DNA of 64,000 nt. Origin: Eledone cirrhosa. Its lineage: Eukaryota. The stretch lies in NCBI GenBank assembly GCA_964016885.1, contig OZ024742.1, forward strand, positions 43,524,001 through 43,588,000, written 5' to 3'. This document shows positions 18,415 through 62,054 of this stretch, piece after piece. The position numbers and the translations under genes were made by a program. Numbering within the stretch: position 1 is the first letter of the stretch; the number at the start of each line of letters is the position of its first letter. The notes beneath the pieces were generated by a model. It searched no databases, had not been told where the DNA came from, and saw nothing but the letters and a program-made list of their open reading frames with translations.

Positions 18415-19790
18415 TGAACACCTGAGCCAACACCAGAGCAAAAGACAGCAACGTCGCGAGGAGTACCGAGCAACCTCTCTAATGATTTTTGAGACAAGCC
18501 AGCACACTCGCAGCGTTGCCTCGTGTGATGGCGAGGCTAATGCGCTGGAACAACCAAGCGCCCTCGTGAGATTCGCCAGTTACCTCTATTAGGCGAGTGT
18601 AGATAAGAACCTCGCAGTCAGCGTGCCGACTCCCCCAAACGTCTCGAAAGCCACAGGCAGAAAAATGTAGCTGGCCGACAGATCACAGTATTTGAGGGTC
18701 TTACTCCGCTCGGCTACGGAAGCTGTGGCTCTCGTCCTAACCGCAGCATCCAGGATGTGGGAAAGAGCAAAAGAGTCATTAACAGTGACGTCCCAGACAA
18801 GGGACCTGTCTCTCGACCAGGGGCAGAGGGTAAGGCCGTCAGGTCTTTTGTCGTCACTTCTGGACAACCCAGATAGTTCTAAGATTGAGAGGATGTTCGC
18901 CCGGGCCAAAGCTGTCCTGAGAATGAGGTTTAGCTCCGTGTGACGCGCGAAGCGGCTGGCATTCAGGCAACAAGTAAGACTGTGGAGTCGAGGAGTTTGC
19001 CGCATCGACACCTCAAATCCATGCAAACGTCAGCTCCCACTCTGAGGGCGATGGAGACACGAAGTTCGTCCAGGCTGAGTAGGCCACCAACGTTGGCCAC
19101 GGGTAGGGCATCAACCCAGTCGCCTGAGTATTTGGCGCTGGCAGATAGTAAGCGGCACCTTGCAAACTTATCTGACTGGACGAAGATGGAGTCGAAGGTG
19201 ACCTTCGAACTTATGCCGTCCCAAGTTCTCTGACTTCGACTGTCCGCCACCTTCTCATGAAGAGACAAGCCCAACTCATTCCATTGCTGGAGAGCTTCAC
19301 CCAACTCCCTGTTGGATTTAGTCCATGCTGGAGAGGAGAGGATGCTGCTCACCAGGGTGGAGCAAGTGTGGGTGGAGGAAAGGAAGCAGGGGAGAGAGAG
19401 GAACGCACACTTATGAAGACCAAGACCCCCAAATCACTTGGGCAACGCAGCCTGATTGTGGGACTCTGGGGAGAGTCTAATATTGACCAGGCACTCGAGT
19501 CTCTCAAAGATTAGGTCGTCGAAGCGTTGGAGGCAGAACGGAAATCTGTGAGAGGGGCTGACCCTGGGCAGATACAGAAGCTTAGGAATAGACAGGTAGT
19601 TCCTGAGTATGAAGAAACCTTGATGGGGTTTGATAACTTCAGCAGCTGCCCAAGGCCAACCATCTTCGATTGGAAGATTGACTCGAAGGCCAGGTCTGTG
19701 ATTGGGGCTCCTAAGGAGCACCCGCCGTGATTCAACGGAATGGTAAGATCCAGTTTTTTGAAGAATACTTTCAAGTTATCTCAGACAAAG
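18415..19790 (-). mobile_element. 5'-truncated CRE-clade non-LTR retrotransposon (end of RT, zinc knuckle and restriction-like endonuclease), frameshifted
   Basis: LPK.FGGLG; SAKYSGDWVDALP...LSLDELRVSIALRVG..C..RCRCG; RFARHTELN...RPDGLTLCPWSRDRSLVWDVTVNDSFA...AERSKTLKY...FLPVAFETFG. Confidence 0.9.
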
Positions 19791-20330
19791 CACACACTCA
19801 TGCGAAAAAAGGGAAAAGTTGAAAATGTTTACCTCGTTTGGTGTTGAAATTGTAGGTTCAGAAAATGTTTCCAATCACAAGAAAGTGCGCACACATACAT
19901 ACATATATATATGATGGCTGCCCCCTCGTTATCGAGTATGGCCATTGCACGATATACCATTATTAATAATTATTAATTAATTCTATCGTGCAATGCCTGT
20001 GTGTGAAGATATTTTTTAAAGTGAGGAAAGACTGTGCACTGAGCCAATCCCACTCTCTGAGCGACAGTAGCTATAACCCGAAAAGAAGAAAAGATCAACA
20101 TCATCGGTAACTATGAACCGCAAGTTTTATATCGGAGTTATCCTTGTTTCCTTTGTTGCCTTCTCCTAGAAGAATGCCCTGACAAAGGTTAGGAGACCTT
20201 CACTCCCAGTGGTTTAACTGCGCGATCGGGTGTCCAGTCCGATTATTTTTATGTCCCCGCGCATATACACATTAAAAAATTAAGAAAAAATTAAGAAAAT
20301 AAATACAAACCGGAATTGTGGTAACTACCA

Positions 20331-22815: not shown

Positions 22816-23111
22816 CAAATAATGAATAAATAAATAATTAGAAAAGGGTATAAATGTTTATAGCTGATTTAGAGCACTCAACAAGTTCCTGGAGCAAATG
22901 ATCAATGAAAATAAGCATTAAATCACTGTATGTAATTATGCATATACATACACATATACATATACACACACACACACAACCATACAAATACACACATATA
23001 TACATACATATACATACATATACATATATATATATATACATATAGGAAAAAGTATGACCCCGACGGCAGAGCTCAAGCCGTTTCTGAGGCTATTATATAT
23101 ATACACACAGC

Positions 23112-23600
23112 TTGAGATCGGTGTGGAAGTCGGACCTTCGTAGAGACCTGAAGGTCCGTCTCTTCATTGCTGTAGTGGAGTCTGTGCTGCTGTATGGGTC
23201 TGAGACTTGGACACTGACCAAGAAACTCACTCAGATGTTGGATGGGTGCTACACGAGAATGCCGAGGATGGCTCTGAACATTAATCAGTATACACTGAGG
23301 ATGAAAAACTCAGAGCTGTATGGGAGCATCCCAAAAGTCAGCTCAAAAGTGACACAGAGGAGACTGAGGTTAGCTGGACATGCTCACCGACATCCAGAGT
23401 TGACATTGCACTCAGTGCTCCTTTGGGAACCCCTACATGGATACACTAGAAGAGGAAGACCAAGGTTAACGTATGTTGATGCCCTCAGGACAGACACTGG
23501 TCTGTTGGAGACGCAGGACATGGCAGCGATAATGAGGGACAGAGACCGCTGGAGAGAACTCGTCCATGAATCTCGGGAATTTTACCCGCCTTAGAGACAC
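23112..23600 (+). mobile_element. 5'-truncated RTE/RTE-X-like LINE 3' end (C-terminal ORF segment intact)
   Basis: VWKSDLRRDLKVRLFIAVVESVLLYGSETWTLTKK...RRLRLAGH...RGRPRLTYVD. Confidence 0.85.
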
Positions 23601-23889: not shown

Positions 23890-24656
23890 ATAAATATCTA
23901 AAAATAAAAATGGTGGGTATGTAAAGGGTAAGGTAGAAAGTAGGGGGGAATAAGGAAAATAAATGACATAGGAAAAGGGTTAAATATAAGGGGAGATAAG
24001 GGAGAAAAAGAATATAAGAGTACAGAAAGTGAGTTCAGAAGGTAAAAAAATCGTAGTGGATGTAAGGCGTAGAGAGCAGAGAAGAAGTTCAAGGTGGTTG
24101 AGTCATCGTAGGAATGTCAATCCAGTTACAGATCAGATGTGATTTCAGGTGAGGACAACATCTGAAGATCTCGGTCTTGGAGTTCAGGCAAGTTGAAGTG
24201 GCTTTCAAGATTTGTAAAATCCTAAATTTTTCAGTGGTACACAAAGAACAATTCTTTGTGCCCCTTTGGTACTCCCTCGAATGGTCTAAAATAGACCAAT
24301 CGATAGAGTACGGGATGTTTTTATCCTTGAATTCCCACACCTTATTTGCGAGAGCCGTTGCTGTTCTTTTATCGGAGTGTTTAAAAGAAGCGACATGTGC
24401 ATAAAACCTGGTTTTAAACCTGTCCTGAGTCATGCCAACATATCGTTCACTCCTGGTTGGCTGGTTGTTAATTAAAGGTGTCACTTTGGCCTCATATACA
24501 ACGGATTTGGTGTTACATTTGCCCTGTAATGGGCATTCATCCGGCTTCCTGCAACTGCATCCTGGATTTATTCTCGTACGATTAGAATTAGTGATTTTAG
24601 ACTTCATTGATGGGCAGCAAGAGTAACTGATTTAACTACATTTCTATTAAATATCT
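23890..24656 (-). mobile_element. 5'-truncated Penelope-like element, C-terminal GIY-YIG endonuclease (Nematis-like)
   Basis: ORF 24089-24607: CSCRKPDECPLQGKCNTKSVVYEAKV...YVGMTQDRFKTRFYAH...WSIL...CSLCTTEK...LNSKTEIFRCCPH. Confidence 0.9.
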
Positions 24657-24693
24657 TATAATATCTATGATTAGGAGGAAAATGTTTGTCTAT

Positions 24694-24966
24694 AGATATT
24701 TAATAGAAATGTAGTTAAAATCAGTTACTCTTGCTGCCCATCAATGAAGTCTAAAATCACTAATTCTAATCGTACGAGAATAAATCCAGGATGCAGTTGC
24801 AGGAAGCCGGATGAATGCCCATTACAGGGCAAATGTAACACCAAATCCGTTGTATATGAGGCCAAAGTGACACCTTTAATTAACAACCAGCCAACCAGGA
24901 GTGAACGATATGTTGGCATGACTCAGGACAGGTTTAAAACCAGGTTTTATGCACATGTCGCTTCTT
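24694..24966 (+). mobile_element. Inverted partial duplicate of the Penelope-like element
   Basis: Reverse complement of 24385-24656 with one indel. Reads IFNRNVVKISYSCCPSMKSKI...YVGMTQDRFKTRFYAHVAS. Confidence 0.9.
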
Positions 24967-25159
24967 ATATATGTAGAAGTTCTAAAAATTATTATAGACA
25001 TTATTTTGAACTTTATACATGCACTCATTATTCGTTTTTCTTATATGTATGTATATCTATATTTAAATGTAACACGGTGTTAAGAGTTTAACTGTTATCA
25101 TTTACCTAAAGTATACTACATTAATAATACCTAATATATATCTATATATATATACATCC

Positions 25160-29594: not shown

Positions 29595-30892
29595 ATTTAT
29601 AGCAATCAAGTGTTATTACAGTTATTTTCTGTTTGAATTCCTACATTTCAAATTTCAAATCACCTAAGTACTTGGATTAATCATAAGATTTGTTTACTTT
29701 CAGCTCCAGCCGCAACCACTGCTTAGTATAGCTCCTTAAAGTGGACCAAATTTATTGTTAGCCACCCCTTAGCATAAGTGCTGATGCATTTGGCTGGTAT
29801 TCAAGAGTTTTCATAGCAGCTCCAGACTACTTTTTGTGCTTCCCTAAATGGTAAGTTACCTGATTTTCTAAGCTATTATTCACAGTAATTACTGTTATTA
29901 CAGTTATTTTCTGTTTGGATTACCACATTTTCAAATACACACACAAACATATATATAATCATCACCGTTTAACGTCCATTTTCCATGCTAGCATGGGTTA
30001 GACGAGTTGTCCTTTTGTGAGACAAACCATGTCAGATGACCATGTCTTGCTAATACAGAACCATTATGTCTTCCTGACTTCTAAAGGCAATATTTGGTCG
30101 TAATTTTTTTGAAATATTTACTTCTGCATCTGCAGATTGATTTTTCTCAGTTTCAGATGATCTCGCTTAGGATGAAAGCAAAAATTCTTTGCTTAAACTT
30201 TTAATCTGCACTAATAATAAATATTTGCTGTACAGGTTTATATAAACTTATATATGTATATATATATATATATCATCATCGTTTAACGTCCATGTTCCAC
30301 GCTTACATGGGTTTGGACGGGAGTTTTCCCACTTGAGGCAAGAGTGGTTGTCATGCTCGCATAGGACTGTCTGGCGGGTTTTCTACAGCTGGATGCCCTT
30401 CCTAACACCAACCACATTTACAGTGTGGGGCTGGGAGGTTTTTACCGTGTTGCCTACACGGCCACATTACAGCGTGGACTGTGTGTTTTTTGTCGTGACA
30501 CCTACACAACCTCATTTGTTTCGGCACAACCCTTATTGAATCTTTGGATTTTGGTCTTTGTATTTATTATTACTATATATATTATATATAAGGAAAAAAA
30601 AATGAAATCGGAAATGCAACTGGAGTCTTTTTAGGAATATTTATTTGTTTGCTTTACTGGTTTCACAGTTCTTATGCTTTTCAAAAGTAGAATTGAGATG
30701 GAGTGTTTGTATATATATATATATGTATATATATAAAATGTAGGATGTCAGATGTAGAAATAACTGCAAATACAGTTGGTTGCTATAAATAATAGTTTAG
30801 AAAATCAGGTAAAATACTCCTATGGATGGCAAAAAGTGGCCAGCAGCTGTTACAAAGAAGCAAACATACTGGTGACTGCTCTAACTATTGAG

Positions 30893-31091: not shown

Positions 31092-32004
31092 ATGACCTTT
31101 GACAATTTCTGTCAAAATTAGAAAGCTAATTCATACAGCTTTTAAATATAAACTACATTGTATGTAAAGCATCGAACTTTTGAAGTGTTGAGTCATTATG
31201 AAGTTCAGAGAAAATGTAGGAACTCAGACATAGAAATTGCCATTGAGCTAAATGTAGCTTTCTAATTCAAACACAGTATGTAAACAACTGGAACAAATAC
31301 TGCAAGGCATTTTGTCTGATAATCTGCTGATTCTGCCATCAAACCACCTTTCTTTGGACTAAATAGCAAAAAAAAAAGCAGAAAAATAAAAAAAAGGAGT
31401 TGATCAGACCAAGGATACTATATGTTCATTGATGTTCCTGTTGCTGATACAATCTGCTAGTCACAACTCCTAAGAGAAGGAATTGTGATATGAACCCAGA
31501 ACGCAGAGAGCTGGATCAGATACCACAATACATCATAATCTGGCTCTTTAACAATTCTGTCAATCTACCATGACAGAACTGTTACTTTATTTACAGTCCC
31601 AAAAAGAGGAAAGACAAAGTTGACCTCGGTGATATTTGAACTTGGAGTGCAAAGAACCAGAACAAATACTACTAAAATATCAAACAAATAAAATTAGACA
31701 ATATTAAGAAATCAATAATTGCAATAATAGAAAAGAAACTACACAAGTATTTATATAAATTTAATTAAGAAAAAAATCTTAACAATTTATTACAATCAAT
31801 TTTTGTGTCATTAAATTAAAAAAATTTCAATTTGTTTATTTTTTATTCTTTTTGCCAACAGAAATTAATTTTGAAGAAATAAAAACAATATAAAAAAACA
31901 ACAACAATAACAACAAATTATAAATAAATAAATATTAAAAAAAGAAGAAAAAAAGAACCGGGGAGGAATGGGTGGTATATTCAACAAGGTTGAAAATTTT
32001 GGGT

Positions 32005-39856
<7,852 letters not shown>

Positions 39857-40350
39857 GATGATAATGATGATGATGAAAGTACTCAATACTAGCCGTGGAG
39901 TCAAATTCATTATGCATTTTGAGTTAGGTGGATCTTCAAGAAGTTGTGAGAGAGCTCTATATTTGTTGAAGGACTCTATATTTAATTTATAGCAATATTA
40001 CAGAGCATGTTAAGATTACCTGGAGGTGTTAATAAAAACACAATGAGGGCTAAGGAAATGTGATTTTAGACACGGAGCATCAGTTAACTCCATTAAAGTT
40101 TTTTTTATATTTGAACCCAGCAGGTAACCTGAAGAAACGTAACTATATATATACGTATATATATATATCAGGATAGAATGTGTTAGACCATTATTCAACA
40201 GTGTATTCAATACTTAAGATAGTAGAATATAGCTATATTAGAAAGAGTTGTGGCCCAACGGCTAAGCTCATGCCATTTCAATGGATATTTCCAGTCTGGA
40301 ACTAGTTGTTGAAATGGCAAGATCTCAGCTGTCAGGCACTAACTCTTTAA

Positions 40351-40430
<80 letters not shown>

Positions 40431-41596
40431 AGATTCAAGTCACTTTAGAAATAAAAGGAGAGAAATACGTCTTCACTCCTATTGAGATCGAAGAAAAGAA
40501 AGTGCATGCCATGGAGTACGCTGGAGTAAAATGACGACGGTAGACACTACCAATGGGCAACTATGGTGCAAACCTCAGTCGTTATCTGGACATTGTTCTC
40601 CAAGAGAATAACTGAGTTGAGGATTGTACCTGATAGTTTAACATATGCCAAGGAAGGTGGGGTTTATAAAGTCATAAACGTTGTGACATATGAGATAGGA
40701 GCTTCGTACAAGACTTTCTGTGAGGGCTTGGGCTGGTCACAATCAACTCAAAATTCTCTCGCACAATCCATGGGAGGGTAGCTATAAAGTTAATCCAAGC
40801 AAATACATCAATAAATGGGTTAATGCTTTCAAGAGAGCTTTTTGGCACTTAGGCTGTATAGAGCCACTTGCAGATCTATTGAAAAATTCTCAACTCAATG
40901 ATGTGAAGAGTGTGATAGTTCTCTAGTAAAGATCACAGGACTAGTGTCTTTGAGGATCCAGCACCGAATTGCTCTAATGACATTCGGAATATTGTTGACA
41001 AGAACTATAAATATGGATTTCTCGGGTGCAGATTCTGTTAAACTCACTTGTTCACTATTTGATTCCTGCACATTCAAAGGCACTGCTGTAAACAAGGGCT
41101 TAGTGGCTGAAATGATGTACCATGGAACCTTTGGAACTACATACAAAGATTTTGGTATTCTCAAGGTTGTGACTAACTACAAGACATGGCACAAAAGAGA
41201 ACATTTCACTGACTTACTCAATAAATTCAAGAACAGTGATTTCAGTGGTGAATGGATGCAGACAGACTCTATAAAGAATATATAAGTGACCAAGTTAGCG
41301 AGTGCTAATTTGTCGGAACTATTGGCCATTAGTGTCAACCCTGAAAGCTGAAATGGTGTGTTCACTGGCTTCAGGCAGTGCATCATAACAAACTCTATGC
41401 TAGAGAGACAGAAAAATAATTCCAGCATCATATCAAGTACCATGGATGCACTAAGTGTTCAAAGAGCATTAGATGCAACTACAGCATGGTTGAGAAGACA
41501 CGGATGGGCACCATAAAATGGATTGAAGTTGCCACTGGAATAGAAACAGTCTTGTGCCTGGATGAAGAAAGATAGTTCTTCCATATCAGCATGTAA
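40431..41596 (+). pseudogene. Endogenous viral element: orthomyxovirus (Quaranjavirus-like) nucleoprotein, disrupted by stops and frameshifts
   Basis: Successive frames give LFSKRITELRI...YEIG...CEGLGWSQSTQNSLAQSMG / KYINKWVNAFKRAFWHL / RIQHRI...MDFSGADSV...EMMYHGTFGTTYKDFGILKVVTNYKTWHKREHF / KLASANLS...VFTGFR / GTIKW. These motifs are collinear with quaranjavirus NP as recalled; no search was run. Confidence 0.75.
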
Positions 41597-41708
41597 GGAA
41601 GCCCAACAAATCAACACCAATAACCCCGAAAACTGATCAATCATTTCTATATTCTCCCTCATGGATATGTTGTACGATTAATAAATGCATCTAGATTTTA
41701 ATATTGAG

Positions 41709-41745
<37 letters not shown>

Positions 41746-41828
41746 AATAACTAGGGTTCTTATATATTTGATATATATTTATCCTTATCAAGCCCTCTTT
41801 GGATTTTAGTCTTCGCATTTATTATTAT

Positions 41829-41863
<35 letters not shown>

Positions 41864-42019
41864 TGTGAAATAAATAACAAGTTTTTCATAACAATATTAT
41901 TTCAAACATAAAATAGAAACAATATAATTTTGGTCAGAAAAATGGAACATTCTTTTTACAATTTGGAAAAATAATTAAATCATAATAATGATCATGATCA
42001 TGATCATGATGATAATAAT

Positions 42020-42775
42020 AATAATGGTTTCTGATTTAGACACAAGGCCAACAATTTTGGAGGAAGAGAAAGTCGATTAAATCAACCTCAATGCATTACT
42101 GGTACTTTATTTTATTGACCCCAAAAGGATGAAAGGCAAACTTGACATTTGAGATATTTGAAATCAGAACATAAAGGGCCATAACTAAATACTGCCAGGT
42201 ATTTTGTCTGACACTTTAATGATTCTGTTAATCTTCCAGCAATTGTAATAATAATTGTTTCTACTTTAGGCACAAGGCCAGCAATTACCCAGTGCATTAC
42301 TGGTACTTTATTTTATCGACCCCGTAAGGATGAAAGGCAAAGTCAACCTCGGCGGGATTTGAACTCAGATCGTAAAGGGACGTAACTATGCTGGAAAGCA
42401 TGGCATCCGACCCTCTACCGATACTGCCAATCCACCGCCTATTGTAATAATAATGGTTTCTGATTTAGGGACAAGGTCAACAATTTGTTGGGAAGAGAAA
42501 TCGATTAATCGACCCCAGTGCATTACTGGTGCTTTATTTTATTGACTCCGTAAGGATGGAAGGCAAAGCTAACCTTGGCTGGATAAAGAACATAAAGCAC
42601 TGTAACTCTATGCCGCAAAGCATGTTATCTGATGCTCTACCGATACTGCCAATAATTTGGGCAGTGTTAATTTATATAGACCTGGTACTATATTTTATTG
42701 ATACTTTCAGAAGAATGAAAGACTAAGTTTAACTCGGTGGGATTTGAACTCAGAATGTAAAGGGACATAATTAAG
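42020..42775 (-). mobile_element. Head-to-tail cluster of ~4 SINE copies
   Basis: Repeated SINE bodies separated by (aat)n. The copy at 42253-42440 is young. Confidence 0.85.
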
Positions 42776-43239
42776 TAATATAATAATGATAAAAATAAAA
42801 ACAATTATTTTTTTAATTATTCAAAAGAAAATGTATCCATTTGTTGTTGTTTTTTTTTATCCAAAATACAAAATACTGTGATTGAAATGTTAGAATTCAT
42901 GGTTAAAGTGTTTGTAACAATTTAAAAAAAAATTGTTTATTAATTATTATTATTACATCAATAGTTTCTTGTGACTCACATAGTCCATCTCTGAGATTCT
43001 GTGTATAGCATAGTACATTCTAATGGGGGAGTATAAACTCCTTCTGTTAATGTACTATATCAATTTTGTTTTGTTATGTGAGCTATATATAATGTGAGTT
43101 ATGATATTGTATTGGATATTAATCTTATAGAGTATATTTTATATGAGATGTGTTGTTTTATTTTATTAGATATTTATTGTATATGGTGTGTGTTGTATGT
43201 GAAGATTGTTCTATTAGAGTGGTGCTACTGAATTGATAA

Positions 43240-44849: not shown

Positions 44850-46030
44850 TTTTAATATTGCTGGTAGTCTAGAACCTTTCTCAATATTTGGGCTGTTCCT
44901 AGTGGGCATGACTTCTGAAGTGATTCAATTCTTTGTGCAAAGTCTATTTTTGACAAGTAATTTTCAATGTTCTTTGTCACCATACCAAGAGCACCAATTA
45001 CCACTGGGAAAATGGTGACTGTCTTCACTTCATTACTCCAGTATTTCAAGATCTCATATTGTCAAAAGGACATGCTACATCTATGAGGATACAATTTATT
45101 TCCTTCTTCTCAATTACAATAATATCTGATCTATTGTGTTCAATCTTCATTTTGGTCTGAATTAGGAAGTCCCATAAGAGCTTTAACTTATCATTCTCTA
45201 GTATTCTCATCTCATTTGTGATGTCCATAGCTATTTTCTGCACATGGAAATCCTTACTTTTTACACAAACTCCAGTGCAACATGGGAGCCACCTTATCAT
45301 GTCTTCCTTTTTATAATCAGTCTGGGCTAACTGCTTACACTCTGAAATGATATATGCAAATTTCTCTGCTTTCTCCCCACAAATTCTTCATTCAGATTGA
45401 ACATCTTTCTTGTCTATGTTTCTCATTACTTACATTGTTCTTATGACTTGATCTTGTGCTGCTAATATCAGTCAATCTGTTTCTTTCTTAATCAAGCCTT
45501 TCTGTAATAATAACCAAGTATTTTCGTTATCACATACATTTCTTATTTCCTTAAGGAATGCTAAATGCAGGGGCTTTTCATCAAATGCTTTTTTACGCTC
45601 TTCAGCAATCACAGTCTTTGTTTTCTGGGACTCCATTTTTCTCAAATATGCCTTCCCTGACAACCTCTAATATAAGCTTTTCTTTCTTATTTCTTATGTA
45701 TGCTCAGCACCCCCTACCTCCCTCCTTTATTTTCCAATACAGCCTGTCTGCATCACCTGGTGGGTCCACACTTCAATAGATAGTAAACATTTTCCTTGTT
45801 TTATGATCAATTTCCTTCAACTCTACTTTTGACCATTCTGCTCCATACCTAATTAATGAAACAGGCCTGGTGTTTATTGCTTGTCCAGTGTTTCCACCAT
45901 TCAAGCTGGACTTGAGGATTGCCATCAATCTTCGAAAGTACTCTTTTCTGACAATTTCTTTCATTTTTTGGCTTTTTAATTTATGGCTTTGTAGCACACC
46001 TAGCTATGTATATGCCTCATCCATTTACAG
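44850..46030 (-). mobile_element. Dong/R4-clade LINE (end of RT and restriction-like endonuclease), degenerate; a further 3' fragment lies at ~46100-46360
   Basis: KEYFRRLMAILKSSLNGGN..AINT; KPLH; LLWDFLIQT..IEHNRSDIIVIEKK...ILIDVACPFD; PVVIGALG...LQKSCPLGTAQILRKVL. Confidence 0.85.
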
Positions 46031-60275: not shown

Positions 60276-61295
60276 TTATTTTCCTTTCTTTACCAAGACA
60301 TCATTAGTTTTTCTCATAGACCTCTCACTCTCATTGATGTATTGTTTCGCACTCTCCGTGAAAACAGCAACAACGATTAAATTTATGAAGATTGTCATGA
60401 ATATTGCCCCGAATGTGTTGTAGAATGTCGGAGGATCTTTCTCGTACAGCATTGCCTTCCATGCTATTATATCTTCGTATATACCATCCAGCTGTTTCCA
60501 CGACACCATCATGATGCAAATATGAAACAATTGGTGACTGTGTCCGAAAAAATCAAATTTTCCGGGGAAGAATCGCTGTGGAATGTCAGAACCAAAGAAA
60601 AACCCGGCCATTATGAACCAGATCATTTGTTCCATGTGATGTGGAAGGCCTTTGTCCCACTTGGATGACATAAACATTAGAAACACCCGATGTGCGATGG
60701 GTAAAATGAGCAATGCATAGATTCCACCAACGGAACCAAGTTGCCAGACCTTTCGAACAAACGGGTACGGTCGTTGGTACCGCACTTTGGATATACTGCA
60801 ACAGAGACACACACCAGCGCCTAGCAACACTCCAACAGGAATGATCCAGCTCTGCACAAAACCAATGTCAAAAGACGGAAGCATGCAGTAGTTGTAATGG
60901 AGAATGATGCTGCCAATTCCATAGAGACCAATTCCAGCGTAATCAAACATGAAACACGTGTAATGGGCAAGTTCGGAACGGGATTGCAGACAGTGAGCCA
61001 AGCTACTGCACAGATATAAAATGACAATACTTAGAATACCTGAAGTCAAAGGCCACATGTAAGGGTCAGTGAAGAGGCAGAATTCTTCAGAGAAGGTCAT
61101 CATCTTCTTTATGACAAGGAACATTGCGATGAGATGGGTCCAAGAGTTGAGGCATTCATTATGGATTTGAAATAAACTGAGAAAGTAGTAAGTCCATGGC
61201 TGGTTGATGTGCCGGAAACCAGAGAGAACATGTGGTTCGTGAAAGAGGAGGGGAACGTGCTCTTTTGAAACGGTTGGCTTCATTATTTGTATCAT
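60276..61295 (-). CDS. PAQR (HlyIII) family membrane progestin receptor-like protein (mPR alpha/beta, PAQR7/8-like), with the conserved region in one exon
   Basis: 339-aa ORF with PAQR motifs VPLLFHEPHVLSGFR, HNECLNSWTH, SSLAH, FDYAGI, PQRFFPGKFDFFGHSHQLFH and multiple hydrophobic segments. A splice acceptor ttttttag lies ~20 nt upstream of the ATG. Confidence 0.95.
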   Translation of the reverse strand: MIQIMKPTVSKEHVPLLFHEPHVLSGFRHINQPWTYYFLSLFQIHNECLNSWTHLIAMFLVIKKMMTFSEEFCLFTDPYMWPLTSGILSIVILYLCSSLAHCLQSRSELAHYTCFMFDYAGIGLYGIGSIILHYNYCMLPSFDIGFVQSWIIPVGVLLGAGVCLCCSISKVRYQRPYPFVRKVWQLGSVGGIYALLILPIAHRVFLMFMSSKWDKGLPHHMEQMIWFIMAGFFFGSDIPQRFFPGKFDFFGHSHQLFHICIMMVSWKQLDGIYEDIIAWKAMLYEKDPPTFYNTFGAIFMTIFINLIVVAVFTESAKQYINESERSMRKTNDVLVKKGK

Positions 61296-62054
61296 TTCTT
61301 CAGCTGAAATATTTCCTAAAAAATGAACAAAAATGAGAGAAAGTTAGCAAATATATTTAATGTATTAACAAAAGCTATATCAAGTTTAACCCTTTTAATA
61401 GTAAACTACAAGAAACTACCATTGGTTATTAAATACAAAGCTGTTTATTCTAAAGTATTTATCATCATCATCATTTTATGTCTGCTCTCCATGCTGTCAT
61501 GAGTTCAGCAGGTGGTCATGGTCTAAGACTAGACAGGTTGGAAAGACCTCATATTTGGCATGGCTTCTTTGGCTTAATGCCCTTCCTAATGACAACTACC
61601 TTACAAAATGTACTGGGTGCATTTTATCGTGGCATTAGCACTAACGCTTCACAGATATTTTAAGATATTTATTTAGCAGCTTGCCATCATATATTTATCT
61701 AAGAAACTTTATTAAATTATGTTAAGTCATAAGAACCTCCCTAGTGTTGATAACCTACACAATAAACACACTCAGTACACTTTGTAAAGTAGTTGGTAAT
61801 TGGAAGAGAATCCAGCTGGAGGAAACATGCCAAAACAAAGGAGGACTCTTCAGCAGTTTCAAAGACATGACAACCTCCCTAATGCTGGTGCTCTAATAAA
61901 ATACTATACTTGGTAGAGTATGGGAATGTTTTATGATCAAGATGTGTGCCACCAGACCACTCAAGCAGCTGTTCAGTACGGGAACATAAATAAGTGAGAT
62001 GCAAACTTCCAGCCCATCTGAGATGTCAGTAGCTCCATTTGAGTGCTGTTCCCC

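Follow-up and report, generated by a model that had tools for sequence, protein, structure and literature searches.

How did a gene resembling the nucleoprotein (NP) of an influenza-related RNA virus come to lie between two microsatellites in octopod DNA, and in which host did the virus live? The locus that raises this question, hereafter the NP island, occupies positions 40431–41710 of the window (the whole stretch of 64,000 nucleotides analysed here, contig C3 43524001–43588000 of the genome assembly). A sequence-only reading had proposed that it derives from the NP gene of a Quaranja-group orthomyxovirus. The features of the island and its surroundings are listed below, where profile positions refer to an NP profile built from 35 relatives.

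40182..40360, no strand: high-copy host repeat containing an internal inverted repeat, mostly found beside TA runs; flank, not viral
40351..40427, no strand: (TA)n(GA)n microsatellite at the 5' junction
40431..41710, plus strand: EVE, a 5'-truncated, broken quaranjavirus-like NP gene with ~135 nt 3' of its last stop, identified by phmmer and profile alignment
40439..40525, plus strand: first NP-like piece, frame 3, profile 100–128; weak alone (2.7 bits) but in collinear order, with a counterpart in the C2 copy described below
40548..40778, plus strand: NP piece, frame 1, profile 136–212, 63.5 bits
40795..40917, plus strand: NP piece, frame 2, profile 224–264, 29.9 bits
40920..41000, plus strand: poorly aligned stretch, shorter than the profile and scoring in no frame
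41001..41492, plus strand: NP core, frame 1, profile 307–467, with two stops inside
41483..41575, plus strand: last NP piece, ending at a stop, frame 3, profile 472–490 scored, 4.6 bits
41711..41743, no strand: (TA)n microsatellite at the 3' junction
60276..61343, minus strand: membrane progestin receptor beta-like gene (PF03006), an uninterrupted ORF identified by homology; host gene outside the element

The longest stop-free frame of the island spans 127 residues. By reading through the stops of frame 1, we recovered 57 matches at E ≤ 0.001 among 1.84 billion proteins (phmmer), the top one being the nucleocapsid protein of Beihai orthomyxo-like virus 1 (APG77869.1, E 1.2e-23, 26% identity) and the third the NP of Wellfleet Bay virus (YP_009110683.1, E 3.8e-15). 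The names of 30 of the 57 matches were looked up: 11 were NPs of quaranja- or orthomyxo-like viruses, 2 came from mite or tick genomes, 2 were labelled 'hypothetical' and 15 were unnamed, with no host enzyme or TE name among the 30. A profile of 35 full-length relatives gave seven PDB matches, all of them nucleoproteins (best E 1.1e-11), and the predicted structure of the top match (pLDDT 85; the modelled protein is the viral relative, not the island itself) resembled the NPs of influenza D (E 1.3e-10) and Thogoto virus (E 4.3e-9). All eight NP-like motifs that the sequence-only reading had named were present on the plus strand in the order it gave, six of them in frame 1 and one each in frames 2 (40813) and 3 (41507), and 9 of the 11 aligned near-invariant NP positions (12 listed) were kept.

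Several other searches returned little. The Pfam Flu_NP model (PF00506) gave no match over its cut-off with the NP island, a failure that is uninformative because the model is blind to the quaranja group: 0 of 36 relatives passed the cut-off and only 2 of 36 gave weak matches. A PDB sequence search with the island had no match at E ≤ 10, Thogoto and influenza entries included, and Pfam and PDB searches with its natural pieces or its frame-1 read-through likewise returned none. A word-index protein search yielded 1115 candidates, none at E ≤ 1, and only two proteins when repeated with alignment; the Atlas search gave no match and the viral-contig search 0 loci. Judged by homology, the island is best classed as an orthomyxovirus-type NP, with significant similarity to named NPs over the conserved core, and as a quaranja-group one, its similarity to the NPs of that group exceeding that to the NPs of Thogoto virus and influenza. 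The identity originally proposed is therefore upheld by the phmmer matches, the profile links and the tree placement given below, and we regard it as virtually certain that the island is a genuine fossil of a quaranja-type NP.

A frameshift-aware alignment of the NP island to the 35-relative profile scored 228.7 bits, compared with at most 26.3 bits for 26 controls (reverse complement 16.3; reversed sequence 20.0; 12 triplet shuffles up to 26.3; 12 other stretches of the window 14.3–22.9). This score is partly circular because the profile was built from matches found with the island, so it serves to map the gene rather than as independent proof, for which the phmmer E value of the top match is the non-circular figure. 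Both the frameshift-aware and the profile comparisons, which had been put forward as checks of the original reading, came out in its favour. The island aligns to profile positions 99–490 of 514, and its first ~100 codons are therefore missing. Two in-frame stops (41283–41285 and 41349–41351) and at least four frame breaks (near 40530, 40780, 40920 and 41485) interrupt it, and the last NP frame ends at 41575, after which ~135 bases of the island remain. It encodes no intact protein.

The NP island was found in contigs of all four read runs (two samples from one study, which is possibly the source of the assembly itself), with a depth of 2.5–4.6 compared with 2.0–5.6 for single-copy flank. Two C>T variants within it occurred in runs X3 and X4, the latter from the second sample, but in neither X1 nor X2, which means that the island has at least two alleles. 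None of the contigs listed reaches unique flank beyond the microsatellites, and the segment at 41735–42100, which has no contig cover, carries no weight. The decayed endogenous state that had been proposed is borne out by the two stops, the four or more frame breaks and the host-like depth: the island is a non-retroviral EVE (endogenous viral element), a gene of an RNA virus that lies in the host DNA, is covered to the same depth as host sequence and bears inactivating changes. The host had been described only as mollusc-like or cephalopod, and the ORF at 60276–61343 agrees with this, sharing 88% identity with a progestin receptor of Octopus vulgaris, followed by an unnamed protein at 78% and, as the best named non-cephalopod match, one at 56%. 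This places the host among the octopods, probably in a species other than O. vulgaris.

The mode of insertion is where the sequence-only reading fared less well. It had invoked a reverse-transcribed viral mRNA, integrated by a local microsatellite-targeting retroelement. The island contains no run of six or more A and, TA runs aside, no flanking direct repeat of seven or more bases, so the usual LINE footprint is absent and an mRNA template is not borne out. A LINE-made retrocopy of a viral mRNA finds neither its poly(A) nor its target-site duplication here; the 5' truncation fits such a copy. Expansion of the TA tracts may have erased both marks. As for the integrator, the 5' neighbour (40182..40360) is a palindromic high-copy repeat with no recognisable LINE end, which gives no backing to the proposed retroelement, and the idea that this flank is the 3' end of a LINE was rejected given its palindromic structure. 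The repeat has 2125 candidates in the genome, with 73 matches among the 40 scored and a depth above 1000 in runs X1–X3.

Other repeats mark this part of the window. A (TA)-rich microsatellite array of ~7.8 kb (window ~32000–39854) ends 580 bases 5' of the island, and a short repeat at 42000–42780, abundant in tandem and dispersed form at many other places, resembles octopus SINEs. Decayed retroelement-like ORFs were seen by eye at ~18600–19800, 23090–23590, 24090–25090 and 45050–45390, none of which gave a Pfam match over the cut-off.

At the DNA level the NP island is single, its one match in the genome assembly being itself, and no part of it has a DNA match in the rest of the window. Six protein searches of the assembly, which included pieces of each copy, led to the C3 window and to two further places only:

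C2, ~66.3465–66.3482 Mb (L013:780–2493), minus strand: second broken quaranja-like NP copy, profile 58–494, 171.6 bits
C23, ~11.934 Mb (L005:900–1750), plus strand: third broken NP copy, profile 209–463, 103.5 bits

The C2 copy apparently reaches back to a start codon and has four stops and five frame breaks; the C23 copy has three stops and two frame breaks. Their reverse complements score 15–16 bits on the NP profile, and the genome thus holds at least three copies, a lower bound. Two weak Flu_NP matches elsewhere in the assembly were rejected as NP, having no score on the NP profile. Neither polymerase nor glycoprotein copies emerged from searches of the genome for PB1 and the gp64 family (0 matches), and these nulls carry no weight because they had no positive control.

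Pairwise, the three copies share only 33–44% protein identity (116–215 shared codons). Codon positions 1 and 2 are 53–65% identical and position 3 is near random at 32–36%, with pS of 0.80–0.85 and pN of 0.34–0.43. Because synonymous sites are saturated and pN lies well below pS, the copies diverged as working genes, and they were therefore most likely integrated into the germline separately; neutral duplication within the host is excluded by the codon-position pattern. Flanks and covered spans also differ among the three.

The surroundings of the two new copies have features of their own. Truncated copies of a ~550-nt dispersed host repeat, inverted relative to each other, adjoin the C2 copy directly on either side (L013:373–779 and 2494–2741); this repeat has 175 candidates in the genome, and its other copies stand alone, without NP. 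We rejected the C2 copy as cargo of a terminal-inverted-repeat transposon, given that the repeat lacked an inverted second arm in all eight 9.9-kb regions and NP was present in 0 of 32 and 0 of 8 family loci, and a candidate conserved viral segment end at L013:758 was discarded as it aligns with the host repeat. The same repeat recurs eight times at C3 337.08–337.15 Mb with a spacing of ~8.7–11 kb, which suggests a large tandem array. A short TA-associated repeat was noted by eye beside both the window copy (41744–41830) and the C2 copy (L013:2930–3020), on opposite sides of the gene; this is probably a coincidence because part of it recurs at window 30541–30590. On either side of the C23 copy stand the arms of a 21-nt inverted repeat (81%; L005 881–901 and 1819–1839), possibly by chance.

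To place the copies, we built a tree of 28 rows, namely the three copies and 25 of the 44 NPs used in an earlier tree with the island; the 25 were picked by hand to keep named and nearest relatives, and short fragments and one 1923-aa match to the out-of-frame start of the island were excluded. The three copies formed one branch (100/99) that appeared in all 200 bootstrap trees. This octopod branch lies with Wellfleet Bay, Araguari, Mason Creek, Longchuan and Beihai 1 viruses on one side of the deepest split (100/100), and the insect-virus rows lie on the other. The branch joining it to its neighbours is weak (82/70), and since the tree is unrooted, without a Thogoto or influenza outgroup, the octopod branch may be the sister of the entire quaranja group.

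These results allow the competing explanations to be weighed. On one alternative, which we consider unlikely, the insertions are real but octopods were not a maintenance host: the donors would have been viruses carried by crustacean prey or by parasites, entering octopod cells only through spill-over. Octopods do feed on crustaceans. Moreover, the known quaranja-like viruses are almost all associated with arthropods, those of crustaceans falling near the tick-borne group (PMC10636315), and the top match, Beihai orthomyxo-like virus 1, is a woodlouse virus (PMC6832935). Sampling of quaranjaviruses from marine crustaceans is sparse, and the ones in PMC10636315 are perhaps absent from the set, so the octopod branch could itself be a prey or parasite lineage. 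However, spill-over would have to explain how three viruses only 33–44% identical in NP all reached the germline, and why their copies group apart from all 25 other NPs of the tree, the woodlouse virus included; germline insertion would also seem to require infection of germ cells.

We consider it more improbable still that a single old insertion became a host gene whose duplicates diverged under selection before every copy died. Any lengthy purifying selection is compatible with the saturated synonymous sites and with a pN far lower than pS, and the copies do share one branch, but the protein searches of the assembly found no intact copy, the flanks differ (the repeat bracketing C2 is not in the window), the spans differ (profile 99–490, 58–494 and 209–463), and the similarly light decay of all three would require that they were lost almost simultaneously. 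Least credible, and very improbable, is that the assembly is chimeric here or includes contaminant DNA, such as a parasite element joined in at the microsatellites. Such sequences do stand at both junctions and are spanned by none among the contigs listed; against this, the depth of the island equals that of host single-copy flank, a second sample has it, two alleles are seen, the three copies lie on three contigs, and the C2 copy abuts host repeat directly, without a microsatellite. A live virus is excluded because of the stops and frame breaks in the NP copies.

The explanation that we consider likely is that the NP island is a broken quaranjavirus-group NP gene that became fixed in the octopod genome. 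With the C2 and C23 copies it makes three, which probably entered the germline separately from three viruses of one undescribed, likely octopod-infecting lineage. The original reading had seen in the island fossil evidence of an influenza-related lineage infecting cephalopods, and this case is now stronger because two further, separately derived copies (C2 and C23) exist and fall on the same branch, with octopods as the presumed true host. Orthomyxoviruses replicate in the nucleus. A quaranja-like segmented virus replicating there would have infected octopod germ cells, where the reverse transcriptase of a host retroelement may have copied NP RNA into DNA, LINEs being abundant and active in Octopus. 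The DNA copy would then have joined a TA-microsatellite tract, with its first ~100 codons lost or never gained, and decayed neutrally. Integration would have happened three times, from three viruses, each copy decaying afterwards. The involvement of a retroelement is suggested by precedent and by LINE abundance in Octopus; LINEs rank first in abundance among the TE orders of O. vulgaris (PMC13282606).

To estimate age, we took the two stops in 1005 coding bases of the NP island to indicate a divergence of ~0.04–0.05 substitutions per site (95% 0.005–0.18). With a rate of 0.0036 per Myr (PMC13282606), this stop count would make the island roughly 12 Myr old (1–50), a crude figure. When the same stop chance was applied by hand, equally crude values of ~20 Myr for the C2 copy and ~26 Myr for the C23 copy were obtained.

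Compared with known systems, the copies are closest to the NPs of Beihai orthomyxo-like virus 1 and Wellfleet Bay virus, the best matches of the NP island (26–27% over ~300 residues, collinear), which fall on the same side of the deepest split (100/100). The octopod copies differ in forming a long branch of their own, with path lengths of at least 3.5 to these viruses, and in being broken DNA in a mollusc. The NPs of Thogoto virus and influenza B and D (PDB 8cjw, 8ryt, 3tj0, 5n2u and 9bjl) belong to the same family by the profile and by the fold of the top match, but they gave no direct match from the island at E ≤ 10 and are far more distant than quaranja-group NPs.

Endogenous elements derived from quaranjavirus-like NP and PB1 are known from ixodid ticks (PMC10675110), and an NP-derived viral fossil is, as an object, ordinary in ticks. 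The tick elements are also quaranja-like and NP-derived, sit in an invertebrate genome and are only distantly similar to known viruses; the octopod copies, unlike them, lie in a cephalopod mollusc and group together, not with the mite or tick sequences. Articulavirales have been described from molluscs, including one from a squid, so the order does infect molluscs. In the portion of the record available, however, these are transcriptome viruses outside the quaranja group where placed, none of the three tabulated comes from octopus, and none is described as endogenous. Quaranja-like viruses are otherwise treated as an arthropod group, nearly all being associated with arthropods ('Quaranjaviridae', PMC10636315). 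Virus-derived 26–30 nt RNAs in dog whelk (PMC6085071) provide a mollusc precedent for the antiviral piRNAs of which the sequence-only reading saw a possible source in the island. Our literature search, outside which most subscription journals lay, found no report of an orthomyxo-like element in a cephalopod genome. The NP island therefore adds to a known class, the non-retroviral EVEs; what distinguishes it is that no report of a quaranja-like virus from the host phylum was found and that it has two sister insertions.

Diet confounds the assignment of hosts from marine transcriptomes. Germline copies are evidence of the host that diet by itself could not provide, and three separately derived copies on one branch point to a lineage in a different phylum. 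We think it probable, if a little less firmly than the origin of the copies, that octopods hosted their own diverse quaranjavirus-like lineage for tens of Myr, the first outside arthropods and their vertebrate and parasitic contacts, that this lineage entered the germline on at least three occasions, and that it may still circulate. The NP copies can be used as sensitive queries for living relatives in cephalopod RNA data and, if orthologues are found, as dated calibration points. Such an octopod lineage bears on the question of an aquatic origin of influenza-related viruses and on how frequently these viruses have crossed between phyla.
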